Positions 629 to 43,000 of a stretch of 44,476 nt of DNA are shown here, piece by piece. The DNA comes from Escherichia phage vB_EcoD_Pubbukkers, in sequence record NC_073068.1; one strand, given 5' to 3'. The translations under genes and the position numbers were made by a program. Positions within the stretch are counted from its first letter, which is position 1; the number at the start of each line of letters is the position of its first letter. A model generated the notes under the pieces. The model saw only the letters and a list, made by a program, of their open reading frames with translations. It searched no databases and was not told where the DNA came from.

Positions 629-2013
629 TGCGTAACTATGCGGCAGAACACCGCGCACTGGAACGCGCGATCGCGAAGCGCAACCGACCACCGCGCCCGA
701 CACGCGTTGCGCAGGCGGTGCGGCTTTACCAGCCTGATTGCCTACCACACCAGGTCGAACTACTGCGGGACACGAAGACTAAAATCCTCGGCCTGTGTTC
801 CGGCTTCGGCGGCGGCAAGTCATGGGTCGCAGCCCGTAAGGTAATCCAGCTTTTAACCCTGAACCCGGGTCATGATGGCATCGTTACCGAACCGACTATT
901 CCACTCCTGGTTAAAATCATGTATCCGGAATTGGAAAAGGCTTTCGACGAGGCTGGCTTCCGGTGGAAGTTCAACAAGCAGGACAAGATCTATAGCGTTC
1001 TGGTGAAAGGCAAATGGACCCGCGTGATCTGTGAATCAATGGAGAACTATACCCGCCTGATCGGGGTCAACGCCGCGTGGATTGTTGCCGACGAGTTCGA
1101 CACCACGAAACAAGACGTCGCGCTGGCGGCATATCACAAATTGCTAGGTCGTCTGCGTGCGGGCTTCGTCCGCCAGTTCGTCATCGTATCCACGCCTGAA
1201 GGCTACCGGGCGATGTATCAAATTTTCGAGGTGGAGAAGGATAGCCAAAAGCGCCTGATCCGGGCGAAGACCACCGACAACCACCATTTACCGGCAGACT
1301 TTATCGACACGCTGCGCAGTCAGTACCCGGCTAACCTGATTGATGCGTACCTGAACGGCCTGTTTGTTAACCTTACGTCGGGCGCGGTGTACAAGATGTT
1401 CAACCGAGAGGAGAACGCCAGCACCGAAGAAGTGCAGCCGGACGACACGCTGATTATCGGTATGGACTTTAACGTCACTAAGATGGCGGCGGTTGTGTAC
1501 GTCAGACGGCAGCGAGTCACCGAGAACAAGGAGTTCCTCGACGAGATTCACGCGGTGGATGAATTTGTGGATCTGTTTGATACCCCGGCTATGATTGAGG
1601 CGATCGAGGAGCGCTACCCCGAACATTGTGCCGCCGGTCGTGTTGTCGTCTACCCGGATAGCAGCGGCAAATCCCGCAAAACGGTCAACGCGTCGTCGTC
1701 CGATATCGCGCAACTGGAAGATGCTGGCTTCGAGGTGGAGTACGACAGCGTTAACCCACCTGTGAAAGACCGATTGATCGCGATGAATACGATGATGTGC
1801 AACTCGAAGGGCGTGCGCCAGTATTTTGTCAACCTGGATAAATGCCCTACACTAGCGAAATGCCTGGAACAGCAGGTTTACGACCTGAAGAAAGGCGAGC
1901 CGGATAAAACTGCCGGTGTGGACCACATGAATGATGCCGCGGGCTACCCTATTGCGCACTTGTTCCCTGTGATTCGTCCGATCGCCGTTGTTCCTACTGT
2001 AGACTTCTACTAA
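628..2013 (+). CDS. terminase large subunit
   Basis: 461 aa; Walker A-like GLCSGFGGGKS and Walker B-like WIVADEFD; position directly before the portal gene. Confidence 0.88.
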   Translation: MRNYAAEHRALERAIAKRNRPPRPTRVAQAVRLYQPDCLPHQVELLRDTKTKILGLCSGFGGGKSWVAARKVIQLLTLNPGHDGIVTEPTIPLLVKIMYPELEKAFDEAGFRWKFNKQDKIYSVLVKGKWTRVICESMENYTRLIGVNAAWIVADEFDTTKQDVALAAYHKLLGRLRAGFVRQFVIVSTPEGYRAMYQIFEVEKDSQKRLIRAKTTDNHHLPADFIDTLRSQYPANLIDAYLNGLFVNLTSGAVYKMFNREENASTEEVQPDDTLIIGMDFNVTKMAAVVYVRRQRVTENKEFLDEIHAVDEFVDLFDTPAMIEAIEERYPEHCAAGRVVVYPDSSGKSRKTVNASSSDIAQLEDAGFEVEYDSVNPPVKDRLIAMNTMMCNSKGVRQYFVNLDKCPTLAKCLEQQVYDLKKGEPDKTAGVDHMNDAAGYPIAHLFPVIRPIAVVPTVDFY

Positions 2014-3545: not shown

Positions 3546-4632
3546 TCAATATATGGCGGATCGAATGATTCGCCGTCACATCTTCACCCAGCGCCTGAGT
3601 AATGACCAGGCGCGGAGGGTGTTGGCTATGTGGGAGAAGTTCCGGCCCACGTTACTGGGTAAGCTGACCGAGTTGCTTGATGGTAAAAAGTCCATGAGCA
3701 ACAAGGCGCTTACCACCCTGTTAACGCAACTCGACAAGACCATCAAAACGGAACTGCGCACCGAGTTTAAGGTGCTGGCTGAAAGCCTTCAGGAGTTCGC
3801 CGACACCGAGGCCGATTATCTAGCCGACACATTAACGGCAGCGATCCAGCCGGTGGTCGCCGTACCGGCGGTCGAGGTGGTTGGCGTAGTGACCGGCGCG
3901 CAGATCGCAGCAACGGCAATGACAAACCCGTTCCAGGGCAATACCATGATGCAATGGCCCGACTCACTTTCTGAGTGGACCAGGACGCAGATCGGTAATC
4001 AGGTGCGGGCGGGATTCATCCAGGGCAAGCCAACGATGGAAATTATCGCGGACGTGAGGCGCGCGCTAGGCGGTCGTAGTGCGCAAGCCATCTCAAGCGT
4101 TGTTAAGTCCGCAGTCAACCACTATGCGGCGACCGCCCGCGAACTAATGGTAAAAGCAAATGACGATATTCTCGAAGGTCGCCAATGGTTATCTACATTG
4201 GACACGCATACTTCTCCCATGTGCCAGCTACGCGATCGCCTGTTTTATCCGGTTGATGTTACTCCCGACACCAAAGGAAAGCGCGGCGGGAAAGTGGTGG
4301 CTGGGTCACAATATGGCGCTGGTCCGGGCAAGTTGCATTATTGCTGCCGCTCGACGGAGACGTGGAAAGTCAAAGGTATGGAAGATTGGCCCAGTGGTAA
4401 GCGTCCGGCACTGAAGGCTGACGCAGGCAGATTGCTGAGTGAGCAGGTCGACGCGCAGACTGATTTCTTCTCATGGGTGCAGCGCCAGCCGCGCCATATC
4501 CTGGAAGAATTATATGGAGTGCAACGCGCCGACCAGATTATGCGCGGCGTGAAAGTGCCGAAGATGTTCACCGATTCTGGCGAACTGATGACTGTTGCAC
4601 AGCTTAAAAACCGGGGGTTATGGCGTGATTAA
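3529..4632 (+). CDS. head morphogenesis protein (Mu gpF / SPP1 gp7-like)
   Basis: 367 aa; start overlaps portal end; contains LSTLDTHTSPMCQLRDRLFYP, matching the conserved D-x-x-T-S-x-x-C core of the MuF domain. Confidence 0.75.
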   Translation: MAKTINQYMADRMIRRHIFTQRLSNDQARRVLAMWEKFRPTLLGKLTELLDGKKSMSNKALTTLLTQLDKTIKTELRTEFKVLAESLQEFADTEADYLADTLTAAIQPVVAVPAVEVVGVVTGAQIAATAMTNPFQGNTMMQWPDSLSEWTRTQIGNQVRAGFIQGKPTMEIIADVRRALGGRSAQAISSVVKSAVNHYAATARELMVKANDDILEGRQWLSTLDTHTSPMCQLRDRLFYPVDVTPDTKGKRGGKVVAGSQYGAGPGKLHYCCRSTETWKVKGMEDWPSGKRPALKADAGRLLSEQVDAQTDFFSWVQRQPRHILEELYGVQRADQIMRGVKVPKMFTDSGELMTVAQLKNRGLWRD

Positions 4633-4954
4633 ATATGCAGCGATCGGGGTGGTTATCGGCCTGGCGGTTGGCTTCTGGCTGGGTGATTCCTACCGCGCTG
4701 GCGTTGTGGCGAGCGCGGCGCAAGAAGCGCAAGCGAAAGCCCGACGGCAGCAAACTAAGGTTGTCGAGGGGGCAGTGCAGGCAGAACAGGCCCGCGACGT
4801 AGAATACCGGACTATCACGAAAGAGGTTGTAAAATATGTTACGCGTCCTAACCGTCCTGATTGTAGTTTTGATGCTGAGCGCGTGCGGATCAAGCAACGT
4901 GCCGTTGATGCCGCTAACGGAGTCGGCACTGCGACCGCCGTGCAAGTTCGATAA
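4595..4954 (+). CDS. i-spanin (Rz-like), putative
   Basis: N-terminal TM helix (IKYAAIGVVIGLAVGFWLG) followed by charged coiled-coil-like region; contains an overlapping lipoprotein ORF in the +1 frame. GTG at 4625 is an alternative start. Confidence 0.5.
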   Translation: MHSLKTGGYGVIKYAAIGVVIGLAVGFWLGDSYRAGVVASAAQEAQAKARRQQTKVVEGAVQAEQARDVEYRTITKEVVKYVTRPNRPDCSFDAERVRIKQRAVDAANGVGTATAVQVR

Positions 4955-5066
4955 CCCGTCCGCGGACCCCGACGAAGATTTGATGATTGACGTGAAAAAT
5001 ATGGAATGCGGCGCGAAGCTAAGGGCGCAAGTGCTGGAGTTGCAGAAAATAATTCGGGGGCCGTGA
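4836..5066 (+). CDS. o-spanin (Rz1-like outer-membrane lipoprotein), putative
   Basis: 76 aa; lipoprotein signal with lipobox LSAC; Pro-rich mature part; starts inside the Rz-like ORF in another frame and runs past its stop (overlapped architecture); RBS AGAGG 9 nt upstream. Confidence 0.55.
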   Translation: MLRVLTVLIVVLMLSACGSSNVPLMPLTESALRPPCKFDNPSADPDEDLMIDVKNMECGAKLRAQVLELQKIIRGP

Positions 5067-5080
5067 TGGCCCCTTTTGTT
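5056..5080. terminator. rho-independent terminator between convergent genes
   Basis: GGGGCC-gtgat-GGCCCC stem followed by TTTTGTT; lies between the plus spanin ORF end (5066) and the minus gene end (5079). Confidence 0.6.
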
Positions 5081-5843
5081 AGCGTGGAATACCGCAGATT
5101 TCGTTTAACGTCTTCACATCCAGCGCCACCGCCGTGGACTTAGGCTTGTCCGGGTATGGAATGAACTGTTCCACTTCAGGCCACGCCTTGATCAGCTTCT
5201 TATCGGTATTGTGCATGTTCAGAACGCCGGTAACGGTTAGCTTGAACGCGTCATACTTAGCTCGCAACTCGCGTCGGGCCTTGTCGTTACGGTCCAGGCG
5301 CTTGCAGAAATCATGATCCGCCGGAAAATCAGCGCGGCAGCGTGGCTTATAGATCGGCAGCGCTTTCCCGTCCTCGTCCAATTCGCACACAGAAGCCAGC
5401 ATAACTTCTTCGTACCCAGGCACAATATCGCCGAGATCGGGAGATAGCATATTCATGTATTTATATTCCCAGTATCCGCGATGTATTCGGTATTGTCGTC
5501 CGTCACCGCTCAATGACAGTGTGCGCACATTTCCGCCTGCGTTGATTTCGAAAGTGGCGTCATAAACGCTGCCGATACCGTTCGGGCTGTCGGCGTCATA
5601 TCTATACGTCGCCTTGTTGGTGTATACGCAGACGCCGTACATCTGCGACGGGTCATCGCCGATTGCTTCAATGCGCTCACGTAGCTCGGCGAACGAATGA
5701 ATGCCTTCCGGCATACAGTCAAGCGTAATGGCGTACGCCAGATTTCGAGAGTCCATCATGATTGATTTGGCTTCGGTCGCGATTTCGTGGTCGCGCAGGA
5801 TGTTAGCCAGAATCTGGTTTTTAATGTCTTTCGTCAGTCTCAT
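5079..5843 (-). CDS. hypothetical protein (reverse-strand moron in head module)
   Basis: 255 aa starting MRLTKDIKNQ with RBS GAGGA; the ORF-track N-terminal extension (to 6224) is low-complexity antisense of the scaffold gene and is rejected. No recognisable motif. Confidence 0.6.
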   Translation of the reverse strand: MRLTKDIKNQILANILRDHEIATEAKSIMMDSRNLAYAITLDCMPEGIHSFAELRERIEAIGDDPSQMYGVCVYTNKATYRYDADSPNGIGSVYDATFEINAGGNVRTLSLSGDGRQYRIHRGYWEYKYMNMLSPDLGDIVPGYEEVMLASVCELDEDGKALPIYKPRCRADFPADHDFCKRLDRNDKARRELRAKYDAFKLTVTGVLNMHNTDKKLIKAWPEVEQFIPYPDKPKSTAVALDVKTLNEICGIPR

Positions 5844-5991
5844 TAGTGTGTCCTCGTTGTTGGTGTGCAACCAATATATGCAACCAATACGAGGATCGCA
5901 AGCGAATTTTGCGATTATTTTTATCGCTGATAATATTAGAAGCGTGAAGTCGAGCGGGTGGCCTGCTCTGCCACAATCCCAGGGGGATAGC

Positions 5992-6696
5992 ATGAAACTT
6001 ACTAAAGCAGAATATGACGCGTTGCCGGAAGGTATGAAGGCGCTTTTTGTTGCCGATGGCGACGGGTATAAATCAACTTTCATGACCGCAGAAGAAGTAC
6101 AGGCGGAAATCAAGGGTCTGAAAGAAAACAACGCGAAGCTGGTGAGCGAGAAGAAAGCAGAAGCCGAACGCCGCGCCGAAGCTGAGCGCCTTGCGAAAGA
6201 GAAAGAGGAAGCCGCCGCGCGCAAAAATGGCGACCTCGAAGCGATCGATAAGTCCTGGAAGGATAAGTTTGCGAAACACGAAGCAGATACATCGGGAAAA
6301 ATCGAAGCCTACCGCAAGCAGATCCACGACCTAACCATCGGCAGCGCTGCCAAAGACCTGGCATCGAAGCTATTCGGTAAGAATGCGGGCATCATGCAAC
6401 GCCACGTAATGGACCGCCTGACGCTGGAAGACGGCGAAGATGGCAGCTTGAAAGTGCGTGTCTTGCAGGATGGCAAACCGTCCGCGCTGACTATGGAAGA
6501 GCTTGAAAAAGAGTTCCGTAATAACGCAGATTTTGCATCCGTCCTGGCTGGCACGCCAGCCGGTGGCGCGCCTAGCAAACCGACGCAGGTTGTCGAAGAT
6601 GTGAAGTCGAAAATCACTATGGGCCACAGCTTCGGTATCACTGACCTTACGAAACAGGCAGGTGAAATCATCGCTAAGATGGGCGACGACGAGTAA
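5992..6696 (+). CDS. scaffolding protein (putative)
   Basis: 234 aa starting MKLTKAEYDALPEG with RBS AGGGGGA; long charged coiled-coil-like segment (AEAERRAEAERLAKEKEEAAARK); immediately upstream of the putative major capsid gene. Confidence 0.6.
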   Translation: MKLTKAEYDALPEGMKALFVADGDGYKSTFMTAEEVQAEIKGLKENNAKLVSEKKAEAERRAEAERLAKEKEEAAARKNGDLEAIDKSWKDKFAKHEADTSGKIEAYRKQIHDLTIGSAAKDLASKLFGKNAGIMQRHVMDRLTLEDGEDGSLKVRVLQDGKPSALTMEELEKEFRNNADFASVLAGTPAGGAPSKPTQVVEDVKSKITMGHSFGITDLTKQAGEIIAKMGDDE

Positions 6697-21707: not shown

Positions 21708-21926
21708 TTACTTGCAGGTTGTGCTTTTGAAATGGTCAACTGACACATACTGGAAGTTGAACGGGTATCCCGCCCTTAGCATTTTATGCCCGGAGAAGTC
21801 CGCAACACCATACACAGGGACCACATAATCCATGCCGCTATTCTGGTATGTGGCGTCGCAGACTTTAGCGGGCATGTCGGCGCAACCGGACAAAAGAACC
21901 GCACAAATCATAATTAAAGTTTTCAT
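21708..21926 (-). CDS. small lipoprotein, candidate superinfection-exclusion protein (Cor/Llp-like)
   Basis: 72 aa from ATG 21926 (MKTLIMICAVLLSGCADMP) with lipobox LLSGC and RBS AGGGGATGA; on the opposite strand between tail genes and the side fibre gene. Confidence 0.6.
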   Translation of the reverse strand: MKTLIMICAVLLSGCADMPAKVCDATYQNSGMDYVVPVYGVADFSGHKMLRAGYPFNFQYVSVDHFKSTTCK

Positions 21927-22005
21927 GGTATCATCCCCTATATTTGGTTGAGTTTTAGTATTACACCGCTCAGCCAGGATTGCAACCAATTACGAGGATT
22001 TAGCT

Positions 22006-24777: not shown

Positions 24778-24839
24778 TATGTGGTCCTTTTTAGTTGGGG
24801 GCGGTATTGCCCCGACGCGTTAACTATAGTGCAACCAAC

Positions 24840-25310
24840 CTATTGGTTGCAAGTGAATTTCGCAACGTTTATTGCGTAAATATTCGGGACCAAATCGCTA
24901 CACGCCCGACGGATAGCTGCAATGTTCTTCGGGCAGTCTTCAATGATGACCAGTTCCGACACGTCTGCGTAGCAGACCATTTTGAACACGGTGCACGCCT
25001 TAAACTCCGGCGGCGGGGTGTCGTCCAGCATGTGGCGCATAAACAACCGGCCTGCCGGGAATACTTCCAGTTGCTCGGCGGTAGTCTCCCAACATTCGCG
25101 CTGCCGGTTAGTCAGATACGCTATCTCGAAGCCTTGCTCTTTGTACATGCGCAACAGCGGCAGCATATCCATGTTCAGGTCTTCGCGAACGTGCGCTTTG
25201 TGCCACTTCGCCCAAAAGGTGGATTTCGTTTTTATGCCTGGCACCAGGTCGGCGCGGGCATCACTCGAACCATTAATGACGCCATCCAGATCACAAATCA
25301 GTAATTTCAT
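24840..25310 (-). CDS. HAD-superfamily phosphatase (putative)
   Basis: 156 aa from ATG 25310 (MKLLICDLDGVINGS): the DxDGV motif I of haloacid dehalogenase-like hydrolases sits at the N-terminus; the ORF-track extension to 25376 is rejected. Confidence 0.6.
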   Translation of the reverse strand: MKLLICDLDGVINGSSDARADLVPGIKTKSTFWAKWHKAHVREDLNMDMLPLLRMYKEQGFEIAYLTNRQRECWETTAEQLEVFPAGRLFMRHMLDDTPPPEFKACTVFKMVCYADVSELVIIEDCPKNIAAIRRACSDLVPNIYAINVAKFTCNQ

Positions 25311-25531: not shown

Positions 25532-25997
25532 GGAGTTCTCCTTCGCTCATTATTTCAATTTTTGCGCTGCCGATTGGTGGCGCTTCGTCAAAGATTATCA
25601 ATTGCTGGCACTTGTTATTGCTCGGCCCGACTTCGCCGGTGACGGCGTGAATGAATCTAATCCGCCAGTCCAGAAGAATTATCAGGTTTGCAGTCTTCCG
25701 GGCCAACTTCGCCCACTTCGTCGACGTGTCCTGATTCAGTAGCATGACAGTCCGGCGACCGTGCGCTGCGCATTCCACCCACGGCAGCGGGTCGGAATAC
25801 GGCGGATTGCACCATTTCCACCCTTTCAACTCTGCCCAGTCCACATCAAGCGCGCTGTGCTCCGCCGTGAAGTAACGCGGTAGCAGATGATTGGCGTCGC
25901 TCGCCGCCATATCGTAACGGAATCGGAACTTACGGCGCAGCGGTTTGAATAAAGCTGGCGGCGTGCGCCAGCTATCTTTTTGCTCACTCTTCTGCAT
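25512..25997 (-). CDS. DNA N6-adenine methyltransferase (phage N6A-MTase family)
   Basis: 161 aa; catalytic NPPY motif (WCNPPYSD) and the N-terminal WRTPP...LF segment typical of small phage Dam-like methylases. Confidence 0.78.
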   Translation of the reverse strand: MQKSEQKDSWRTPPALFKPLRRKFRFRYDMAASDANHLLPRYFTAEHSALDVDWAELKGWKWCNPPYSDPLPWVECAAHGRRTVMLLNQDTSTKWAKLARKTANLIILLDWRIRFIHAVTGEVGPSNNKCQQLIIFDEAPPIGSAKIEIMSEGELLEYLSR

Positions 25998-26448
25998 GAC
26001 CTGGATCTATCGCGTATAAAGGGACTTTATTGCCGGTTTTCATAACGCGCTGGACGCGCTTTGACTCCTCGGCGCTCATTGGGCGCATATCAGTGCTATA
26101 ACCACCGTTTGATGTGTGCCGCCACGCTATCAGCACCAGATCTTTCCGGTCGATCTTAGACTGGCGGCCCTTCGGTCGCACGTACGCCTCGGCCAGTTTG
26201 CAATGCTCGCGCAGACCTTCGGCAGTGATGCGGTTTAGCGCGACGGTGGTTGTGTACCCGGTGCGCTGCATAATACCCATCAACTCATACAGCAGTTCGA
26301 AGCGCTCCTCTAACTCCTTGCGCATCTTTTCCTCGCCTTCATAGCTCGCCAGGTAGGTATCCGCCAGCGCGTTCGCCCGTTCGACCTGTTCGCGGGCTTC
26401 GAGGCATTGCGCGGCCCAGTAATTTTTCTCTTCTTGTAAAATTTTCAT
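25984..26448 (-). CDS. hypothetical protein
   Basis: 154 aa; charged, helical-looking N-terminus; no motif recognised. Confidence 0.5.
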   Translation of the reverse strand: MKILQEEKNYWAAQCLEAREQVERANALADTYLASYEGEEKMRKELEERFELLYELMGIMQRTGYTTTVALNRITAEGLREHCKLAEAYVRPKGRQSKIDRKDLVLIAWRHTSNGGYSTDMRPMSAEESKRVQRVMKTGNKVPLYAIDPGHAEE

Positions 26449-26736: not shown

Positions 26737-26772
26737 TCAATATAATGCAACCAATACGGTTACGCAACCAAT

Positions 26773-29704: not shown

Positions 29705-29983
29705 CTATGCGACCAATTCAGCAACCAATAAATCGCAGTCGGATATGTTGTCGATAACGCGAACGTCAGCACCGCGGCGGGCCATTCGCTCATGTTCACG
29801 TACCTGGTGCGGCTTCGGTTTTCCTCCGGGGCGCTTCACTTCGACGAACACTATTTTGCCGTTGATGATAATAATCAGGTCGGGCGCACCTGCGCGCCCC
29901 TCCCATGCCAGTTTTCGGCAGAATCCGCCTACCTCTTTCACCCGTCGCATCAGGTGACTTTGAATCTTGCCTTCTGGTGTCAT
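29705..29983 (-). CDS. VRR-NUC domain nuclease
   Basis: 92 aa; PD-(D/E)xK-type core DLIIIINGKIVFVEVKRPGGKPKPHQ typical of VRR-NUC; start overlaps the polymerase stop. Confidence 0.7.
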   Translation of the reverse strand: MTPEGKIQSHLMRRVKEVGGFCRKLAWEGRAGAPDLIIIINGKIVFVEVKRPGGKPKPHQVREHERMARRGADVRVIDNISDCDLLVAELVA

Positions 29984-32900
29984 TACTTCCTGTACCTGTA
30001 CATGATGTCGCCTTCAGCGGCAAGCGGGAAGCCTTTCGCCCAAATAGGCAGGTCGCACATCAGCGCGCAAAGCTCCTCGGTCGTGTAGTCGTCGGTGTCC
30101 GGAACTTCGGTGATCAATTCATCGTGCACTGACAGGACGATTTCATATCCGGCAGCTTCAACGCCAGGCATGGACCACGCGAGGATATCGCGGCACAGCG
30201 CCTGTACGATGTTTTCCGTCAGTTTGCCGCCGTAGGTGTACTGGAACCCCCACTGGCGCGTCGTCTGATTCTCGCCCTGATATTTAATGCGGGTGCTGGT
30301 GCGCTTCTTGCCGGTGTCTTCGTCAATCTCGGTCGTGACCGACAGCGCGATGCCGGGGTAACTCATGATGCGCCCCGACGGCAACTCAATTTTCAACCAC
30401 CACCCCGCGGCGTTCGGGTCGTCGCGCTCCTCGTCAAAGGTTGGGTCGTGCTTCGCCTTCGTACGGACAATCTTGAGCGCTTTTCTACCGTCCGGGCGAA
30501 CGGTAGCGCCAGCCCAGTATGCTTTGCCCGGATTGCGTATTGCACACAACACCGCGTCCTCAAGCTCGGCCCAAAAGGCTACCGTCTTCGGGTGCGCCTC
30601 TCGCCACATGCGTTTAATCGCATCACACGTAAGCCATACGTTTTTCGGCAGTATGTAAGTCGGGCGCTCGTCCTTCTTGCCCGGCTTCGGCGGTCGCTTC
30701 GCTTCGTTAATGCGGGCGTACTCATAACCCCGTTTAGCCGCTGCCCAAATGTGATTGGGGAATGTGCCCTTCATGACGTCCGCCATCGCGTAAAGGTCGA
30801 GGCCCAGGTTTTTAGCGAACTGCAAGAACGCCGCGACGCCGCCACCATAGCCCAGGCCAAGCTCGCAGTTATGCGCCACCAGAAAACCAGACTTAGACGC
30901 AATAAGGAACCGGTTTCCGTCTTCCACATCAATCAGGTCGTAAACCGGCTCGCAATAGGTTAACTTCCCGTTCCAGTTCAGCAATGCGGGTAAGGGCTTC
31001 ATCGTACTTTCGCTGAAGCTCGGGCACGCTGCGCCGGTTACGGCAGTTTTCCGAACGGCTGACAAACCGAAGGTTTCCAGGCTCATAGTTGCTGTCTGTA
31101 TCGATCCGGTCCATTTCGAAGTCTGGATTATCCCAGCCGTCCAGCGTTTGAACGTAGAGAAGAAACGACCTTTTATCTCTCTGCCATTCGTCACATACGG
31201 CAATCCCACGACCGCCGTAGTTTTTATACCCTTTGGCGCGGGGGTTTGTCGTTCGTGATATTGCCGCTGACAGCCGGTTGAGCAACCGCGTTCTGTGCGC
31301 ATCGTCTGGCATTGCGTCATCGTAGCAAAAATACTGTTTACGATACCGCTTTGTCGCTTCAATTGCGCAGAGGTTGCATTGGGATGTTTTACCCCTTCGG
31401 ACGTTGTCATACCCGACGCGTCCTGGCATCGCTCCGCAATCACATTGGGCCAGCAGTTGTCTGTGCCCCTGTCGTTTTGGTAATTCGCGCAGGATAACCA
31501 GGCGTCCATACCTCTCGCCAGGGCGCGGGCCATCGTGCACCTGTCTGAAACGAGTTGCCTTGCCTCCTTCCATGAATGCGTCAAGATTTTGTGGTCTTCT
31601 GTCATCAAGACCCCGTCCACGTCTATCACTGGTTTCCACCCCATAAGGTGCGCGCCTTTTGTACTCACCCATTTTTCGCCGTTCCATACTTTATCCGTTG
31701 ATGTTACGGCCATAATATCCTTGAACCCGCCATCGGTCAATACTTGGGTATGGCGGTGCAAGCAAGCCTTCCCTATCTGGCGTAAGTCCTTGCGGTTAGC
31801 TTTAATGTAGTCCGGGTCCAGGCCGAACATCTTACCGGCAGTCTCACAATAGATATCACGACCGGCCTTAAACACCATTAGCGCGGTTTTCTCGCCAGCG
31901 ATCCAGGCAAGTCCACGCCCTTCCACGTTGGAGTAGTCCGCTACGACAAACTTCTTGCCCTTAGCCGGGATAATGCACCCGCGAACGGTCGAGGCTGTTA
32001 GCTTCGATATGTCGTACGCCCAGTGTGCGGTCCCGCGTAGCAGGGAATTGATGCCGTTGGTGAGCATGTGCGACCGGACCCAAAAAGCAACGTCGCTCTC
32101 GCCTTCGCGGCGCTTAATCTTCCCTTCGTGATCGTCGCTATACTCGCCGCGTGCCAGGTTTTGAGGCTGGAAGCCTTTACCGGCCCAGCGTAGCGTGCGC
32201 TTTGCCCCTCCATACTGAAGACAACCTCGGCGGCGACCGTCGGCGGATAGGCCATTAACGAGCGGATTGTACTTAGTCGACGCCGTGGATGACGCACCGA
32301 GGCGCATCTCGATAAGCACTTTGCCCTCGTCGGGGAAGTCTGGATCTTCCAGCAGGTCGTTAAGCGTGGATTTCTGCGCATTGTGGATTGTGAACGCAGG
32401 CGCGAGGTCGCGCAGCGCTGGCAGGAAGTCATTGCCGGTCAGCTTACCGCCGAAGCGCTCCCAGGCTTCTTCCTTCAATTCTTCCTTATGCGCCTGCACC
32501 GCTTTGATCGCGGCGTTCGCCAGGTCAACGTCCACATAGAAGCCGCGGTCATTGATCAACTGGTCGATAAGCAGGATTTCATCTTCCTTCGGGGTATTAC
32601 CCCAGTCCGGTATGCGCCAGTAGACCTCCCGCATCGCGATAATATCCAGCGCGGCATATCGCAGAAATTTGGCCCATTCTTCAGGGTGAGTCTCGCGAGT
32701 GTAGCGGCGGATTTTGTAAGTCTTAGGGGTAGGCTTGCAGAATCGTTTAATCAGCGCCTTGCCTGCCTTATCCTTCGCGTGCTCTGCGTCAACGCCCAGC
32801 ACCTGACACTGCATATCGAGGCTGCCCGGCAGCGCGTGCCGAAAGGCCATAATCATGGTATCTTCGATCTGGCTTACCGGCAGGTCGATTCCCCACTTTT

Positions 32901-33171
32901 CACGGATAACCAGGCGGTCAAACAGGAGGCCGTTAGCCATCACGATTTTTGCTTTCTTGCGGGATACCTGACGGAGCGCCTTGCGCAGTTCACGCGGCAT
33001 TGTTGGTGATTCAGTGGCATCCCATGTCTGCACGCGGCCTTCGTCGATGGCGTAGGTGCAAATCATGATCTCGGTGGTTGGGTGCTCTGCGTAGGCGTAC
33101 GCCCCTACTTTCTTCAGGTCCACCCCGCTAAATGTCTCGGTATCGAGAAACAGGCGTTCAAAGTTTTTCAT
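29983..33171 (-). CDS. DNA polymerase I family (3'-5' exonuclease plus polymerase) interrupted by an intein
   Basis: 1062 aa; Exo I FLDTETFS; motif A VADYSNVEGRGLAW; motif B split as RQIGKA | intein | CELGLGYGGG; motif C VLSVHDELITEV. Intein residues 470-768 carry block A (CLHRHTQVLTDGG), block B (ILTHSW), block F (VYDLIDVEDGNRFLIA) and block G (FLVAHN followed by +1 Cys). Confidence 0.85.
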   Translation of the reverse strand: MKNFERLFLDTETFSGVDLKKVGAYAYAEHPTTEIMICTYAIDEGRVQTWDATESPTMPRELRKALRQVSRKKAKIVMANGLLFDRLVIREKWGIDLPVSQIEDTMIMAFRHALPGSLDMQCQVLGVDAEHAKDKAGKALIKRFCKPTPKTYKIRRYTRETHPEEWAKFLRYAALDIIAMREVYWRIPDWGNTPKEDEILLIDQLINDRGFYVDVDLANAAIKAVQAHKEELKEEAWERFGGKLTGNDFLPALRDLAPAFTIHNAQKSTLNDLLEDPDFPDEGKVLIEMRLGASSTASTKYNPLVNGLSADGRRRGCLQYGGAKRTLRWAGKGFQPQNLARGEYSDDHEGKIKRREGESDVAFWVRSHMLTNGINSLLRGTAHWAYDISKLTASTVRGCIIPAKGKKFVVADYSNVEGRGLAWIAGEKTALMVFKAGRDIYCETAGKMFGLDPDYIKANRKDLRQIGKACLHRHTQVLTDGGFKDIMAVTSTDKVWNGEKWVSTKGAHLMGWKPVIDVDGVLMTEDHKILTHSWKEARQLVSDRCTMARALARGMDAWLSCANYQNDRGTDNCWPNVIAERCQDASGMTTSEGVKHPNATSAQLKRQSGIVNSIFATMTQCQTMRTERGCSTGCQRQYHERQTPAPKGIKTTAVVGLPYVTNGREIKGRFFSTFKRWTAGIIQTSKWTGSIQTATMSLETFGLSAVRKTAVTGAACPSFSESTMKPLPALLNWNGKLTYCEPVYDLIDVEDGNRFLIASKSGFLVAHNCELGLGYGGGVAAFLQFAKNLGLDLYAMADVMKGTFPNHIWAAAKRGYEYARINEAKRPPKPGKKDERPTYILPKNVWLTCDAIKRMWREAHPKTVAFWAELEDAVLCAIRNPGKAYWAGATVRPDGRKALKIVRTKAKHDPTFDEERDDPNAAGWWLKIELPSGRIMSYPGIALSVTTEIDEDTGKKRTSTRIKYQGENQTTRQWGFQYTYGGKLTENIVQALCRDILAWSMPGVEAAGYEIVLSVHDELITEVPDTDDYTTEELCALMCDLPIWAKGFPLAAEGDIMYRYRK
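30868..31764 (-). mobile_element. intein inserted in DNA polymerase motif B
   Basis: 299 codons between extein residues ...RQIGKA and CELGLGYG...; starts with Cys, ends with His-Asn followed by Cys; canonical Hint blocks at both ends; the central ~180 codons show no endonuclease motifs in the polymerase frame. Confidence 0.8.
30929..31687 (-). CDS. HNH homing endonuclease encoded in the -1 frame inside the polymerase intein
   Basis: 252-aa ORF offset by one nucleotide from the polymerase frame; contains GRLVILREL...CDCG...SQCNLC, KGYKNYGGRGIAVCDEW and DRIDTDSNYEPGNLRFVSRSENCRNR (HNH core). Likely true start at Met39 (31573); no strong RBS seen. Confidence 0.6.
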   Translation of the reverse strand: MERRKMGEYKRRAPYGVETSDRRGRGLDDRRPQNLDAFMEGGKATRFRQVHDGPRPGERYGRLVILRELPKRQGHRQLLAQCDCGAMPGRVGYDNVRRGKTSQCNLCAIEATKRYRKQYFCYDDAMPDDAHRTRLLNRLSAAISRTTNPRAKGYKNYGGRGIAVCDEWQRDKRSFLLYVQTLDGWDNPDFEMDRIDTDSNYEPGNLRFVSRSENCRNRRSVPELQRKYDEALTRIAELEREVNLLRAGLRPD

Positions 33172-33396: not shown

Positions 33397-34173
33397 TTAA
33401 CGGCGGCGACGTTTACGTGGCGCTTCGTCTTCGTCGTCGTCCTCATCTTCGTCATCGCGTGGCTTACGACGTTTACGTGGTGCTTCATCTTCGTCGTCGT
33501 CATCGCGGCGCTTGGACTTTTTGGACTTGCGCGGCTTGTCGTCTTCGTCATCGTCATCACGACGTTTTGACTTTTTGGACTTACGCGGGCTTTCGTCTTC
33601 GTCATCGTCGCCCAGGTCTTCGTCGGAACATGAAGACCCGCCACCTCCGAAGGCTTCGCCGTCTTCACGGAATCGCAGACCCAGCAAGCCTGCCCCGAGT
33701 CCCTTGCCGTTGGTATTGTTCCACGCCCAAATATCAAGGGACACGTTGCAATAACAACCGGAGTAGATCTCCTGGCCTTCAATCTCGTCGCCTTCTACGG
33801 TCAGACCTTGTTCAGTCTGCTTCTCGCCGAGTGACGTTTGAATGATAGGCTGTTTGAACGATTTGGCGTTGATATACAACATGCCTTCGAATTCTTCGGT
33901 CACTTCGTCGCGCTCGTCACCGTCGCGGACTGCGCATTCCTTCGAATCCTGGGCGTAGTGGCGGTCCATCCACTTATCGGCATTCTTCTCGGATTTCAGC
34001 TTGTCGGTGAGCACTGCGCGCGCTGCCGCTTCCACTTTGTCCACCTGCGGATCTTCTTTATCCAGAAGAATCACGGCACGGTATGCCGGTTTTTGCCCAT
34101 CCTGTTTAGGGGTATCACGTTCCCAAATTTTAAGGAAGCATACGCGCACATTTTTCAGGTTGACTTTAGCCAT
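33397..34173 (-). CDS. ssDNA-binding protein-like (DUF2815-like N-domain) with alternating acidic/basic repeat tail
   Basis: 258 aa from ATG 34173 (MAKVNLKNVRVCF) with RBS GAGGAA; C-terminal ~80 aa are repeats of D/E-rich blocks followed by PRKSKKSKRR-like blocks, ending RKRRRR; encoded by imperfect tandem DNA repeats. Confidence 0.5.
   Translation of the reverse strand: MAKVNLKNVRVCFLKIWERDTPKQDGQKPAYRAVILLDKEDPQVDKVEAAARAVLTDKLKSEKNADKWMDRHYAQDSKECAVRDGDERDEVTEEFEGMLYINAKSFKQPIIQTSLGEKQTEQGLTVEGDEIEGQEIYSGCYCNVSLDIWAWNNTNGKGLGAGLLGLRFREDGEAFGGGGSSCSDEDLGDDDEDESPRKSKKSKRRDDDDEDDKPRKSKKSKRRDDDDEDEAPRKRRKPRDDEDEDDDEDEAPRKRRRR
33408..33610. repeat. imperfect tandem repeats within the SSB-like gene 3' region
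   Basis: Two ~35-bp units (cgacgtttacgtggYgcttcRtcttcgtcgtcgtc) and two ~45-bp units (ttggactttttggacttRcgcgg...tcgtcttcgtcatcgtc) encoding the charged repeat tail. Confidence 0.6.
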
Positions 34174-34263
34174 TTTCCAATTCCTCATTTTCACATGTAT
34201 CGGGGTTATTGGAAGCCACCCCGTTCGGCTTGGTTGCTAATCTACTTGGTTGCGCCTTAGCGG

Positions 34264-34506
34264 TCAAGCGTTTTTATTAAAAAGATTTCGTGTCACGTAG
34301 TTGGTGGCGTTCTCGATCCAGCTTAACGGCGGGCGGTCGATATTCCTCTCCACCCAGTCGACGGCAGCGTCGCTATAACCGTTGTCCAGCCAGCGGGTCG
34401 GATGTCGAATCATCCACGCCACCATTAATACGCCTTGTACGCAATGCAGAATAAAACCCAGCGCGCCGAGCAAAAACATCAATAAGATTGCGAATACTTT
34501 ATTCAT
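34264..34506 (-). CDS. small membrane protein
   Basis: 80 aa with N-terminal hydrophobic helix (VFAILLMFLLGALGFILHCV); start overlaps the stop of the upstream nuclease gene. Confidence 0.45.
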   Translation of the reverse strand: MNKVFAILLMFLLGALGFILHCVQGVLMVAWMIRHPTRWLDNGYSDAAVDWVERNIDRPPLSWIENATNYVTRNLFNKNA

Positions 34507-35929
34507 TGCTTAAGTCCTCGTCAGTAGCTTCAGACCACGCAGGGCGCGGGTCGTCTATTGGCGCTAATACCGGTTTAGCCGGTGCGCGCGTGATTTTATC
34601 ACACAGCTTCGCCCATACTTTCGGCTTCTCGTCCTTCAGTACCTTCTCGGCATCGGTAGGACTGAGTAATGTTTCTTTGTACATCACATCGCGCTTGATC
34701 CGGGCCTTAGTGAAGATTTCAATCACTTCGCGTTCGTCCGCCCACTTGCGAATCCCTTCCTTACCGGCAACCATCTTGAGGCCCAGCGATTCGCCATCAC
34801 CCGCCATTACGGCCTTGAATACCGCGGACTCGATAGCCTTGATGTGCTGGCGCATTGCGTCTAGACCCTCATATGCCTTGCGCAGTTCCGCCGCGCTCAT
34901 AGCGCCTGGTGCCGCTTCTCTCTTACTACGCTTCGCACGTCGTGCCGCTTTGCGGGCTTCGCGGGCCATATTGCGGTCGTGATTGGCGCATTCTTCCTCG
35001 GTCGCCACGCTCACGTCGTCGCCCAGGTCTTCGTCGGTTGCCGTTGGAGGTGTCATCGTGTCGATTGCGGCCTTAGCGCGGGCACTACACTGATCCGCAA
35101 ATCGACACCACTGGCACGCATCAACGCTGGGCCGGAAGTCTGCGCGGGTAAGCCCCTTCTTGCCTCGGGAATACGCCTCCAGTGCGGCAATAGCGCGCTT
35201 GGATGCAAACTTCGCGAATATCTCCAGCGCTTCTACCGAAATATCCCACTCCGACGCCCCGCCGCAATACGGCTGGAAGATAACCAGTCGCACGGTTGTA
35301 ATGTCGTACATAGTTTGCAGCTTGCGCAGCAGTCCGAGCGCGTACAACATAAGCTGTTTGTTCTCTTTCGCCTCGACCTTATGCCGCCCGGTCTTCAGGT
35401 CGCCAACAATCAGCATGTACGTTCCATCGGTCTTTTTCATGACCATGACCATATCGGCAGTACCGAACGTTTTAATCCTGTTGCCGTCGATCTCGTAGCC
35501 TGAGTGAAGGACGCGGGTCAGATCGGCGCGCATCTCAAGCTGGACAAACTCCGCCACTTCGAGGAGCGGTCGCCAGTGGTCGATGTACGCGTCGCACTGT
35601 TTCACCATGTCGTCGTTGACCAGTACGCCGCCTTTCGGTGCGTTAGGGTGTGCCTTTACTGGCCCCTTGCCTTCGTTCTCGACGTAGCACCCTTTATACG
35701 TCTTCGCGGTTATCAGCTTCTCACCGGCGATAATGCGGTTTAGCACCACCTCAGATACGGTGTGCATACTCGTACCGTTAATCGCGGCTTGCCCGGATTC
35801 GTTCGGGATATCTTTTTCCACCACCAGGGCGGCAGGGCAACCCATCCATTTTTTAGCACCGGATGGACCAAGTAATGAGTGTTCCGTATTGCTACCGGAT
35901 TGCGTTTTACGTTTTGGTTTAATCGCCAT
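34499..35929 (-). CDS. PD-(D/E)xK nuclease, DUF2800 / Cas4-like
   Basis: 476 aa; N-terminal LGPSGAKKWMGCPA, central VGDLKTGRHK (D-x-K) and C-terminal Cys cluster (ACQWCRFADQCS) as in Cas4/RecB-family exonucleases; adjacent to the SSB-like gene. Confidence 0.68.
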   Translation of the reverse strand: MAIKPKRKTQSGSNTEHSLLGPSGAKKWMGCPAALVVEKDIPNESGQAAINGTSMHTVSEVVLNRIIAGEKLITAKTYKGCYVENEGKGPVKAHPNAPKGGVLVNDDMVKQCDAYIDHWRPLLEVAEFVQLEMRADLTRVLHSGYEIDGNRIKTFGTADMVMVMKKTDGTYMLIVGDLKTGRHKVEAKENKQLMLYALGLLRKLQTMYDITTVRLVIFQPYCGGASEWDISVEALEIFAKFASKRAIAALEAYSRGKKGLTRADFRPSVDACQWCRFADQCSARAKAAIDTMTPPTATDEDLGDDVSVATEEECANHDRNMAREARKAARRAKRSKREAAPGAMSAAELRKAYEGLDAMRQHIKAIESAVFKAVMAGDGESLGLKMVAGKEGIRKWADEREVIEIFTKARIKRDVMYKETLLSPTDAEKVLKDEKPKVWAKLCDKITRAPAKPVLAPIDDPRPAWSEATDEDLSNE

Positions 35930-37129: not shown

Positions 37130-37159
37130 ATAATAGATTGGTTGCAGGATGGGTGTCAA
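37130..37159 (-). promoter_or_regulatory. sigma70-like promoter for the acidic-protein gene
   Basis: On the minus strand: -35 TTGACA (37159-37154), 18-bp spacer containing TGCAACCAAT, -10 TATTAT (37135-37130); a 7-bp inverted repeat CATCCTG/CAGGATG (37111-37117 and 37146-37152) brackets the -10. Confidence 0.5.
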
Positions 37160-37335: not shown

Positions 37336-37665
37336 ATGAATGTAAACGACGCAATCGAAATGTTAACGAAGACTGTTTGCAGTGAGACTAGCCGGTCCTG
37401 GGCTTATACCGATGCCGTTGGGGAGGTGTTATTTGAAATCGAACGACTGCGCAGTGTCGAAAAAGAATTACGCGCCAGGCTGGAATTGCTCAACGGTACG
37501 GCGGCCAGCAAGCTGCAAAAGCACAATGAAGAAATGGAAGAATACAAAAAGCAGGTTATCCGTTTGCGCGCCGAGGGCAAATCCTGGGCGATGATTGCCG
37601 AGTTGACCGGAATTAATCAGAGCACAGTGCGCTCCTGGGTACGCAATAATAAAACTTCTAAGTAA
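37336..37665 (+). CDS. HTH DNA-binding protein (putative transcriptional regulator)
   Basis: 109 aa; C-terminal helix-turn-helix-like GKSWAMIAELTGINQSTVRSWVR; first gene of the rightward arm; perfect -35 TTGACA at 37276-37281 upstream. Confidence 0.55.
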   Translation: MNVNDAIEMLTKTVCSETSRSWAYTDAVGEVLFEIERLRSVEKELRARLELLNGTAASKLQKHNEEMEEYKKQVIRLRAEGKSWAMIAELTGINQSTVRSWVRNNKTSK

Positions 37666-39940: not shown

Positions 39941-40015
39941 ATTTTGCGCGCATTGGTCGCCGTTATGGGAATCCCCATATCGGTAAAAGATTAAATTTTG
40001 CGCGCATTGGTTGCC
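39930..40015. repeat. pair of 32-bp direct repeats (31/32 identical) overlapping the primase stop
   Basis: taaaagattaaattttgcgcgcattggtYgcc at 39930-39961 and 39984-40015, 54-bp period; each ends in an ATTGGTYGCC motif. Confidence 0.8.
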
Positions 40016-40075
40016 ATTTTGCGTGCTTTTAGCTGGTCGTATTGGTTGCCGTGTAGTGTAAATATAATGAATAGT

Positions 40076-40263: not shown

Positions 40264-40475
40264 AATCCGGGATTGCATAACGCACGGCAACAAGATGCGG
40301 AGTGCGGTCGTCGATGAACTAGGCAACCAACGCGAGATGCATTATGCTGAGTGAAAAATTCAGTTTGCAGTTGCAGCAGATAGCGATCAACTTTTTCATG
40401 CGCGTGATTGATATTGGTTGCATTCGTCCTGCCAGGGTGTTAGATTGGTTGCATATCAAACGAAGGAGGGCATTC

Positions 40476-41955: not shown

Positions 41956-41990
41956 GTCCCAGTGAGCTAAAACTTACTGGGACTTTTTTA
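41956..41990 (+). terminator. rho-independent terminator / RBS-occluding hairpin immediately upstream of the holin
   Basis: GTCCCAGTGAG-ctaaaa-CTTACTGGGAC stem followed by TTTTTT and then the holin ATG at 41990. Confidence 0.6.
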
Positions 41991-42280
41991 TGGATAAGCT
42001 AAACGAGTGGTTATTTGCCCTCGCATGTCTGGCAGGCGGCTTCGTAGGCGCACGCATTCACGGCGAGGCTACGAAAGGGCCGCTAAACTTCGTGTTATAT
42101 ATCGTAGTTGGCTTCCTGTGTGCCATCTTTGGTGCGCCAGCTATCGCCGAGTGGGCTGGCTTATCTGGCGAGCGCACTGTCGCCGGTTTGGGCTTCGTAA
42201 CTGCCATCTTCTGGATGCCAATAGCTGACCGGATCCGGGAGACAATTGCGTCGCTACACCTTCCGGGGGGCGCAAAATGA
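41990..42280 (+). CDS. holin (putative)
   Basis: 96 aa with three hydrophobic segments and a charged C-terminus; first gene of a three-gene cassette ending in a lysozyme. Confidence 0.6.
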   Translation: MDKLNEWLFALACLAGGFVGARIHGEATKGPLNFVLYIVVGFLCAIFGAPAIAEWAGLSGERTVAGLGFVTAIFWMPIADRIRETIASLHLPGGAK

Positions 42281-42522
42281 TTATCACCGTCCTGTTGTTT
42301 GTTATCATAGGGGCTTCGTCCCTGTTTAACGTGTATGCGCCGTCCGTTCAGGATGGCTTCTTCGGTCGGGTGTTATATCTGCTAACAGCAATGACCTGTA
42401 TTGTCGGGCTGTTGCAAACGGGAGACGTCTCTGATGCCACCTGGACCGCGTTAATCTGGCTGTTTGCATTGCGCACCCTGCGTAATGCTGTGTTGAATGG
42501 GGTAAAACATGCGATTCAGTGA
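42277..42522 (+). CDS. second holin-like membrane protein (holin or antiholin)
   Basis: 81 aa with two or three hydrophobic helices; start overlaps the previous stop; overlaps the endolysin start. Confidence 0.5.
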   Translation: MIITVLLFVIIGASSLFNVYAPSVQDGFFGRVLYLLTAMTCIVGLLQTGDVSDATWTALIWLFALRTLRNAVLNGVKHAIQ

Positions 42523-43000
42523 TAACGGTCTAAGATTTACGGCAGCATGGGAGGCTTTCAGCCCGGTGCCGTATTTCGCGACCAAGAAAGAGCAGGCCCG
42601 CGGCCTGTACACCTGGGGTTATGGGCACACTGGCACTAATCCGCCACGAAGCATTACCCGTGCGGAAGCGCTGGAACTGCTCAAGCGCGATGTGGCGTAT
42701 GCTGAGGACTGGGTGAACAAATACGCACATCCGAGCATTAACCAGGCGCAATTCGACGCGCTGGTGGATCTGGTAATCAACGCCGGTCCAGGTCCGATCG
42801 TCCCGGATGACGTCGCGACCGACTTTGATGATGCGGTGCGACTGGGCGACTGGGCGAAGGTGCGGGCTATACTGCCACAATTCCGCAAGCAAGGCGGTGT
42901 AGTGCTCAAGGGGCTTGTCCGTCGTGCAATCGGCAGGCAAGCGCTATTCGATGGTAAGCAGTGGGACGTTGCCGAGCGAATCGGTCGTAACGCTGCATAA
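42509..43000 (+). CDS. endolysin, phage lysozyme (GH24-like)
   Basis: 163 aa; N-terminal GLRFTAAWEAFSPVPY...GLYTWGYGHT matches the catalytic-Glu region and the Y-T-I-G-x-G-H core of T4-type lysozymes. Confidence 0.72.
   Translation: MRFSDNGLRFTAAWEAFSPVPYFATKKEQARGLYTWGYGHTGTNPPRSITRAEALELLKRDVAYAEDWVNKYAHPSINQAQFDALVDLVINAGPGPIVPDDVATDFDDAVRLGDWAKVRAILPQFRKQGGVVLKGLVRRAIGRQALFDGKQWDVAERIGRNAA

Follow-up and report, generated by a model that had tools for sequence, protein, structure and literature searches.

What is the function of a gene that is read against the direction of the packaging and head genes surrounding it? The question is raised by a locus of Escherichia phage vB_EcoD_Pubbukkers (sequence record NC_073068.1), whose 44,476 nucleotides are referred to here as the window. 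The window is a Dhillonvirus genome, and its gene order follows that of Escherichia phage Pandora71. Between a pair of spanin genes and the head scaffolding gene, a single open reading frame (ORF) occupies the minus strand at 5079-5843. A preliminary description of this DNA had rightly noted the opposite-strand gene and had taken it for a moron of unknown function, probably accessory or defence-related cargo. We find that the gene is nmad5, a genuine, selected, non-structural and dispensable gene. Neither the gene nor its family is new, and an ortholog has been studied experimentally; what is added here is a corrected start, the absence of an enzyme signature, an affinity with replication modules, a genus-wide operator-like motif and an adjacent variable slot. 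As to function, we give a probability of roughly 45% to a reading in which Nmad5 is a non-enzymatic binding or adaptor protein, associated with replication or recombination early in infection, that presents a surface of conserved residues and is expressed from a promoter shut by a factor binding the motif TGCAACCAAT.

The family assignment is secure. The protein matches Pfam PF18757 (Nmad5) with E = 1.8e-56 and 192 bits against a cut-off of 27, and the match runs end to end, with profile positions 1-206 of 206 aligned to residues 1-253; the protein also matches phrog_1965. The earlier statement that the ORF has no recognisable motifs was thus wrong. Its stated length of 255 amino acids (aa) needs a lesser correction: the ORF is real, its product has 254 aa, and 255 is the number of codons with the stop included. 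All parts of the Nmad5 signature are present (the N-terminal R-L-T, G104, T213/L217/W221-P222-E223 and L246-N247..G-(L/I)-P), in columns that are 85-99% conserved in a 111-sequence alignment. We take the origin of the name from the Pfam title (nucleotide modification associated domain 5) and from secondary citations. The base-modification gene neighbourhood on which the name is based does not surround the window gene, which has spanin genes and the scaffold gene as neighbours; this feature is contextual and leaves family membership unaffected.

The nmad5 locus matches 157 Dhillonvirus phage records at 80-95% identity; for the coding sequence, nucleotide identity to Dhillonvirus records is 91-94%. 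The window gene is the ortholog of SM_S22 CDS0006 (PhiSMS22 CDS6), with which it shares position and orientation at about 91-92% nucleotide identity over the locus, and of PhiSMA8 CDS7. The SM_S22 annotation gives a 334-aa product that begins at an upstream ATG (window position 6083) and reads through the control region into the opposite-strand scaffold gene. We reject this extended form on several grounds. The Pfam profile starts at residue 1 of the short form; every full-length close homolog starts with MRLT, and most have 254 aa; the extension crosses a conserved promoter region and enters the scaffold gene on the other strand; and a different gene fills that interval in PTXU06, SM_W22 and EK99P-1. 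On these grounds we conclude that the true nmad5 product is the 254-aa form. A GAGGA resembling a Shine-Dalgarno sequence lies 7 nt 5' of its ATG. With this start the two numberings are offset by 80 codons, and K296 of the long numbering is therefore K216 of the short one. The window protein has a lysine at residue 216, in the context TDKKLIKAWPE, so that the position discussed below for escape from the defence system Tmn is present. Constructs designed on the long annotation would therefore include the native control region. The SM_S22 annotation over-extends the scaffold gene (CDS0007) as well as nmad5 (CDS0006), which produces an opposite-strand overlap of ~200 bp; K296 as numbered in PMC11846954 goes back to this annotation.

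nmad5 forms a minus-strand unit of its own, consisting of a predicted promoter, an optional variable gene, nmad5 itself and a terminator shared with the convergent o-spanin gene, and this unit splits the packaging and head genes. The bidirectional terminator proposed in the preliminary description was recovered as a hairpin on both strands, GGGGCC-GTGAT-GGCCCC, with minimum free energies of -19.0 and -17.4 kcal/mol in a 51-nt context; its U-tract is good on the plus strand and interrupted on the minus strand, and the o-spanin stop codon (5064-5066) lies inside its loop. The same hairpin occurs in a distant lineage (L011), whose Nmad5 is 62% identical at the protein level, and is an annotated terminator in PTXU06. 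At the other end, the 148-bp divergent region, which stretches to the ATG of the scaffold gene, was confirmed, and the TTGCGA-17-TATATT promoter was found there by scan. A scan of 2 kb returned one promoter-like match against 1.3 expected by chance; the prediction gains its credibility because an equivalent TTGCAA or TTGCAT -17- TATATT is retained in relatives, including L011, which has TTGCAT. Predicted promoter and shared hairpin, both conserved in relatives, would insulate nmad5 from the flanking operon. The GC content of nmad5 (0.52-0.55) is like that of its flanks. Since the terminator closes the upstream plus-strand unit, a scaffold-side promoter of some kind is needed, and a back-to-back candidate, whose -35 repeats that of nmad5 in inverted orientation, may be the scaffold-gene promoter, weaker than that predicted for nmad5. 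An Rfam search of 4500-6500 at E<=1 gave no match, and thus no known RNA element in the control region.

Does the gene matter to the phage? Pairwise ratios of nonsynonymous to synonymous substitution (dN/dS) among six Dhillonvirus alleles are 0.08-0.18, indicating strong purifying selection; taken by part, the ratio is higher in the centre (0.15-0.66 over residues 45-140) than in the C-terminal half (0.03-0.12 over residues 141-254). The 62%-identity lineage has exactly the same last 20 residues, encoded with nine synonymous differences, and the constraint therefore acts on the protein and not on the DNA. Near-full-length Nmad5 (at least 80% identity) is found in roughly 142-144 of 157 capsid-gene records, or about nine of ten, these being counts of records in which many phages are entered twice. 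The 62%-identity lineage has nmad5 at the same place and in the same orientation. This near-universal presence at a fixed position, together with flank-like composition and low dN/dS, does not fit a moron in the sense of sporadic cargo, and the absence that was examined in detail is an internal deletion. It occurs in Teewinot, to which the window is most closely related (99.7% identity in the capsid) and which lacks the 635 bp corresponding to window 5104-5738; the junction is at the 9-bp direct repeat CAGATTTCG (Teewinot locus ~2150-2158). Teewinot is deposited as a complete genome, and this natural deletion confirms that nmad5 is dispensable. The Teewinot annotation folds the nmad5 remnant into an over-long 348-aa plus-strand 'gp7'.

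The same observations bear on another reading, in which the product is structural or assists head assembly and its coding on the opposite strand is incidental. The location, between the head morphogenesis and spanin genes on one side and the scaffold and capsid genes on the other, would suit such a protein, and the preliminary description had set its own view against that of an essential head protein conserved in all relatives. nmad5 is near-universal in the genus, yet an engineered deletion phage is viable (PMC11846954) and Teewinot carries its deletion in nature, so that the gene is not required for particle formation. Homologs of nmad5 lie in early or replication regions of other phages, and the gene has a separate predicted promoter with a motif common to non-structural units. 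We regard a structural role as next to untenable.

Published genetics connect the gene to Tmn. Escape mutants of two Dhillonviruses share one nmad5 substitution, K216E in PhiSMA8 and K296E in PhiSMS22 (Yamashita et al. 2025, PMC11846954). In Tmn-expressing E. coli, reverting the K-to-E change restores sensitivity to Tmn and introducing it confers escape, and the nmad5 deletion phage is not only viable but still Tmn-sensitive (PMC11846954). Cloning of nmad5 failed, apparently from toxicity (PMC11846954). Phages with wild-type nmad5 are Tmn-sensitive, so that the gene gives no protection from Tmn (PMC11846954), and a PADLOC scan of Nmad5 returned no match. Because the missense change K216E escapes and the deletion does not, the simplest reading is that the altered Nmad5 still binds a partner, unproductively. 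Accessory or defence-related cargo, as first proposed, is partly right: the gene is non-structural, dispensable and insulated, and its K216E form escapes Tmn, but the wild type does not protect from Tmn and homologs reside in replication or early operons.

A precedent for such behaviour comes from another Tmn variant, Tmn-25, which is triggered by T2 RIIB, an early protein linked to the replisome and the membrane (2026 preprint, PMC13001434). A single-residue RIIB variant still binds Tmn without activating it, so that binding is separable from activation, and rIIB nonsense mutants escape Tmn (PMC13001434). A basis for Tmn sensing shared by Nmad5 and T4 RIIB was considered and rejected, as profile comparison (hhalign) gave a probability of 0.2%. 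Elsewhere in the window, a 154-aa protein (25984-26448, minus strand) is 81% identical to SM_S22 CDS0035 (phrog_10530, labelled 'DNA ligase'), which is probably the anti-Tmn protein ORF35 in the numbering of PMC11846954; close ORF35 homologs differ in activity (PMC11846954), and the activity of the window protein is therefore not predictable.

Is Nmad5 an enzyme, as its name suggests? An AlphaFold2 model built on the 111-sequence alignment is confident (predicted local distance difference test score, pLDDT, 89.7; predicted template modelling score, pTM, 0.83). It opens with three helices at the N terminus; a lineage-specific insert then forms a small beta-meander and residues 178-209 a long basic helix, the signature is carried by two short helices, and a further helix closes the C terminus. 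Foldseek comparison of the model with the PDB found no match below E = 1, the BFVD viral structure library returned Nmad5 members only, and sequence and profile searches of the PDB gave noise, with a best E of 0.04 to an apolipoprotein. The remote homology search and structure prediction that the preliminary description had called for have thus returned a Pfam and PHROG family and a confident model that matches no solved fold. The family comprises 368 representative clusters at E<=1e-3, and all 69 homologs with domain annotation carry PF18757 alone, with no fusions and no cofactor- or nucleotide-binding domain. Most of the conserved columns (R2, L3, T4, I11, G104, T213, L217, W221, P222, E223, P229, L246, N247, G251, L/I252 and P253) are of a hydrophobic or structural kind. 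Of the 111 sequences, 70 have K at position 216, 15 have Q and 14 have R (99/111), and K216E therefore reverses the charge within the patch that is conserved best. A beta-bridge that residue 2 makes in the model, adjacent to T213, probably brings the N-terminus into the K216 patch. Dhillonvirus Nmad5 has lineage-specific inserts at about residues 71-90 and 121-160.

These results weigh on the reading in which Nmad5 is a DNA-modification enzyme and Tmn senses the DNA so modified. The family name and annotations speak for it, the authors of the Tmn study interpret Nmad5 as a DNA-modification enzyme (PMC11846954), phages SN1 and CN1 have the gene within their thymidine hypermodification cluster, and two DNA methyltransferases are encoded elsewhere in the Dhillonvirus genome. 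The confident model, however, shows no known enzyme fold, and the family has neither a cofactor- or nucleotide-binding domain nor fusions. The window contains no hydroxymethylase, DNA kinase or aGPT-Pplase gene, its only modification-type genes being the two methyltransferases, ~20 kb from nmad5. Homologs are common in lambdoid, Stx and other phages that have no known modification, and Dhillonviruses are comparatively sensitive to type I and type II restriction (PMC8594841). Reconstitution of thymidine hypermodification of phage M6 used lysates or purified forms of gp51-gp55 only, which include aGPT-Pplase2, a pyridoxal phosphate (PLP) enzyme, a radical S-adenosylmethionine (SAM) enzyme and a kinase (PMC8989533); by SN1 gene order, gp55 should be aGPT-Pplase1, and the neighbouring Nmad5 gene is taken not to be among the five. 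The literature that we found reports no nucleotide-modification activity of Nmad5. Finally, deletion of nmad5 leaves Tmn sensitivity unchanged (PMC11846954), which is hard to reconcile with Tmn sensing the product of the gene. We consider an enzymatic role improbable.

The neighbourhoods of homologs in other phages, taken from annotated records and from the contigs that encode them, point in a different direction. In four metagenomic phages of 41-46 kb, the gene order is DUF2800 exonuclease, Enc34-type single-stranded DNA-binding protein (SSB), Nmad5 and family-A DNA polymerase (PolA). In Klebsiella phage VLCpiS11a the Nmad5 gene precedes those for an exonuclease, an SSB/annealing protein and a polymerase; in Vibrio phage Athena1 it precedes the gene for replication protein O. 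In the early-left operon of lambdoid mEp235 and of an Stx1 phage it comes immediately after N, and cIII-kil and the recombination genes follow further downstream. In Bas95 its surroundings are early genes, with those for a polynucleotide kinase and an exonuclease nearby, and in Serratia phage ChibiTotoro it is the last gene of a Dam-containing operon. Of the lineages examined, a single one shows the association with a hypermodification cluster. What recurs is expression early in infection together with genes for DNA replication and recombination, and the Dhillonvirus site is unusual in this respect, with a promoter of its own retained. The window itself encodes a DUF2800 exonuclease (34499-35929), an Enc34 SSB (33397-34188) and PolA (29983-33171), with no Nmad5 between them. 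The window PolA ORF has 1062 aa compared with 763 aa in Pandora71, owing to an in-frame insertion of ~265 aa at residues 470-735 (about 30970-31761, minus strand); the insertion has no Pfam match at E<=1 and may be an unrecognised intein-like or mobile insert.

How might nmad5 expression be timed? As the preliminary description had it, two exact copies of TGCAACCAAT lie in the divergent region, at 5866-5876 and 5879-5889. One fills the spacer of the predicted promoter and the other covers the -10 and the start site, so that occupancy would shut the promoter. The approximate inverted copy that had also been reported, TTGGTGTGCA, is real but weak. With copy 1 it forms a quasi-palindrome with TTGGT/ACCAA arms; the outer CCTCGT/ACGAGG arms are not conserved in relatives. 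The whole arrangement of promoter and motifs is conserved in SM_S22, PTXU06, SM_W22 and EK99P-1, and the 62%-identity lineage keeps the promoter and both copies, as ATTGGTTGCA and ATTGGTCGCA.

The motif is not confined to this locus. With up to one mismatch allowed, 15 copies were counted in the window where 3.35 would be expected; none of 100 shuffles gave as many as 15, and the copies are mostly paired, either direct (12-35 bp apart) or inverted. Beyond the sites listed in the table, pairs occur at 29708/29720 (29708-29729), 40006/40041 (40006-40050) and 40413/40444 (40413-40453); single copies are found at 21981 and 37137. In Pandora71, where intergenic DNA makes up 7.8% of the genome, 15 of 18 matches are intergenic, at positions equivalent to those of the window; in the window, 7 of 15 are intergenic even with a deliberately over-called ORF set (p = 3e-6). 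At nmad5, 24830 and 26746 the motif abuts a five-of-six -10 hexamer that lies on the same strand as the gene downstream (3/15 sites against 3.7% by chance, p = 0.016). TGCAACCAAT is thus a genus-conserved, promoter-associated element marking about seven control regions. A literature search with the motif sequence retrieved unrelated primer matches only and no description of it. The spacings do not suit a sigma-54 element or a -35 substitute, and both readings of the motif were therefore dropped. The tail-fibre gene has a Cor-like superinfection exclusion gene (phrog_1119; 21708-21926, minus strand) as its divergent neighbour, and a motif copy lies in the intergenic region that they share.

Which protein would bind the motif? 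Beside the site at 37137 lies a gene for a 109-aa protein with a C-terminal helix-turn-helix (HTH), a candidate for the motif-binding factor and no more than that. Nmad5 could instead be the DNA-binding regulator of TGCAACCAAT, repressing its own and other promoters. Its C-terminal third is basic (pI 9.4, with 16 K+R in residues 177-254), its C-terminal tail, as read from the sequence, resembles the first helix and turn of an HTH, the motif overlaps the nmad5 promoter, and the gene is apparently toxic on cloning. Yet searches of Nmad5 showed neither a DNA-binding fold nor a Pfam domain of that kind, and the protein ends where the recognition helix would begin. The family is widespread, whereas the motif is absent from most of the non-Dhillonvirus Nmad5 loci examined; beside another motif site lies the gene of a separate HTH protein; and deletion phages are viable. 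Such a regulatory role appears distinctly improbable.

The locus includes one element that does behave like accessory cargo, and it is a slot beside nmad5 rather than nmad5 itself. Between the conserved control region and nmad5, an extra minus-strand gene is present in PTXU06 (135 aa), SM_W22 (172 aa, with an internal tandem duplication) and EK99P-1 (53 aa), and at least 6 distinct phages among the 30 best matches show a split match consistent with insertion into the slot. Pfam and PHROG searches assigned the slot genes of PTXU06, SM_W22 and EK99P-1 to no family. In the window the slot is empty, the equivalent point being about 5844-5850.

The slot with its orphan genes also lends some weight to an anti-defence or host-takeover role, in which wild-type Nmad5 neutralises another defence or an essential host factor and K216E retargets it to Tmn. 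Consistent with this are the opposite-strand promoter and terminator of the unit, retention in nature of a gene that is dispensable in the laboratory, the faster evolution of the central lineage-specific insert (dN/dS up to 0.66), and the position of the lambdoid homolog in the N-to-cIII interval. Lambda keeps ral and sieB in that interval. Reported toxicity on cloning and the existence of a gain-of-function escape allele would fit as well (PMC11846954). On the other hand, Nmad5 has no PADLOC match and no known inhibitor fold, and its near-universal presence in the genus, fixed position and low dN/dS are unlike those of typical counter-defence genes, which turn over fast. In several lineages it sits between core replication genes, and the wild type gives no protection from Tmn. 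We are doubtful of this role while granting it appreciable weight; it overlaps with the explanation that we favour and does not exclude it.

That favoured explanation can be put as follows. Nmad5 would not be a DNA-modifying enzyme; it would be a helical binding or adaptor protein working with the replication and recombination machinery of the phage early in infection. Its working surface would combine the N-terminus (R2-L3-T4), the stretch T213-x-x-K216-L217-x-x-x-W221-P222-E223 and, at the C terminus, the invariant LN..G(L/I)P. With K216E, binding to the partner, which may be Tmn itself, would persist but would be unproductive. The phage would encode a DNA-binding protein, in the simplest case a repressor, with TGCAACCAAT as its operator, and the shared motif would tie nmad5 expression to the programme of replication and early units rather than to that of the head genes. 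Several points tell against this explanation. The link of Nmad5 with replication is one of gene neighbourhood only, the four loci with the SSB-Nmad5-PolA order probably represent one phage lineage, and in Yuavirus SN1 and Vojvodinavirus CN1 the homolog is located within a thymidine hypermodification cluster, the setting from which the family has its name. The small set of conserved polar residues (R2, T4, T213, E223 and N247) could in principle be catalytic. The nmad5 promoter and the operator role of the motif are predictions, and the site at 21981 adjoins a late tail-fibre gene, so that the motif extends beyond early units. Part of the reported toxicity may stem from an over-long construct, which would include the native promoter region.

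A more specific version joins two proposals. Nmad5, as an early, replisome-linked protein, would contact the sensor arms of Tmn through the K216/WPE surface; wild-type Nmad5 would then be one of at least two ligands that activate Tmn, and K216E would occupy the sensor and block activation by the other trigger, whereby the missense mutant escapes and the deletion does not. In parallel, TGCAACCAAT would be the operator of an undescribed Dhillonvirus-wide repressor circuit, in which perhaps the 109-aa HTH protein (37336-37665) times nmad5 together with the replication genes. We regard this conjunction as unlikely.

The features of the locus and the motif sites discussed above are collected in the table. 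The spanin pair closes the packaging and head-morphogenesis unit and lies ~6 kb, measured circularly, from a holin-holin-endolysin cassette at 41990-43000.

Table. Features of the nmad5 locus and of related motif sites; positions are those of the window except in the last row, where they are those of the respective loci.
Feature	Position	Strand	Details
nmad5 coding sequence	5079..5843	(-)	254 aa + stop; ATG 5843-5841, stop codon 5081-5079
Hairpin terminator common to the convergent o-spanin gene (+) and nmad5 (-)	5056..5074	.	called on both strands by scan
Overlapping i-spanin (4595-4954) and o-spanin lipoprotein (4836-5066) genes	4595..5066	(+)	PHROG Rz-like spanin matches; end at the terminator shared with nmad5
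Head scaffolding gene	5992..6696	(+)	ATG at 5992; phrog_206, E=8.9e-51, match from residue 1
Divergent control region, nmad5 / scaffold gene	5844..5991	.	148 bp; conserved in SM_S22, PTXU06, SM_W22, EK99P-1 and L011
Predicted nmad5 promoter	5873..5901	(-)	-35 TTGCGA (5901-5896), 17-nt spacer, -10 TATATT (5878-5873); scan match
Motif copy 1 (TGCAACCAATA)	5866..5876	(+)	exact; overlaps 3' half of -10 and expected nmad5 transcription start
Motif copy 2 (TGCAACCAATA)	5879..5889	(+)	exact; fills promoter spacer directly upstream of -10
Imperfect inverted half-copy TTGGTGTGCA	5860..5869	(+)	read from sequence; overlaps copy 1; kept in relatives; not reported by repeat search
Candidate back-to-back promoter for scaffold/capsid genes	5909..5936	(+)	TTGCGA-16-TAATAT (8/12 matches); read from sequence; below scan threshold; conserved in relatives
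Inverted motif pair TGCAACCAAC-ct-ATTGGTTGCA	24830..24851	.	abuts minus-strand TATAGT -10; motif scan
Direct motif pair	26746..26772	(+)	copies at 26746/26763; abuts minus-strand TATATT -10; motif scan
Motif copy in replication-module divergent region	37137..37146	(-)	inside spacer of a TTGACA-17-TATTAT promoter; motif and promoter scan
109-aa protein with C-terminal helix-turn-helix	37336..37665	(+)	beside the 37137 motif site; Pfam HTH_23, HTH_28, Sigma70_r4_2; phrog_9366
Extra slot genes	PTXU06 1789-2196; SM_W22 1789-2307; EK99P-1 1760-1921	(-)	locus coordinates

These findings matter in that very few phage loci, nmad5 among them, have a genetic link to Tmn, a poorly understood membrane nucleoside triphosphatase (NTPase) defence, and in that the gene is used in phage engineering for therapy. 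The corrections to its start, its enzyme label and its promoter affect how such experiments are read: constructs with the nmad5 upstream region would carry the native promoter in a derepressed state, and the label of DNA-modification enzyme has no structural or contextual support in Dhillonvirus. A partner of Nmad5 could be sought, concretely, in the replication modules with which the family is linked in other phages.

Comparison with known systems places the locus as follows. The nearest are the nmad5 genes of PhiSMS22 and PhiSMA8, whose published properties (dispensability, toxicity on cloning and escape from Tmn through a K-to-E change) are expected to apply to the window gene; the SM_S22 product, however, is annotated with 334 aa and that of the window has 254. 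With the PF18757 proteins of Yuavirus M6 and SN1, the window protein shares a full-length profile match, the conserved signature and the nature of a single-domain phage protein; it differs from them in its lineage-specific inserts and in having no adjoining base-modification genes. T2 RIIB is likewise dispensable to its phage, and single-residue changes in it likewise determine whether the phage is stopped by Tmn. RIIB is described as a replisome component of early to middle infection, and Nmad5 would be one too, by extension from its gene context. The two are dissimilar in sequence and profile; escape from Tmn follows from rIIB nonsense mutations but not from the nmad5 deletion; and the Tmn variants tested differ. 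Like the lambdoid morons, finally, nmad5 is an insulated opposite-strand transcription unit inside a structural module; unlike them, it is near-universal in its genus, keeps its position even at 62% identity and has the composition of its flanks.

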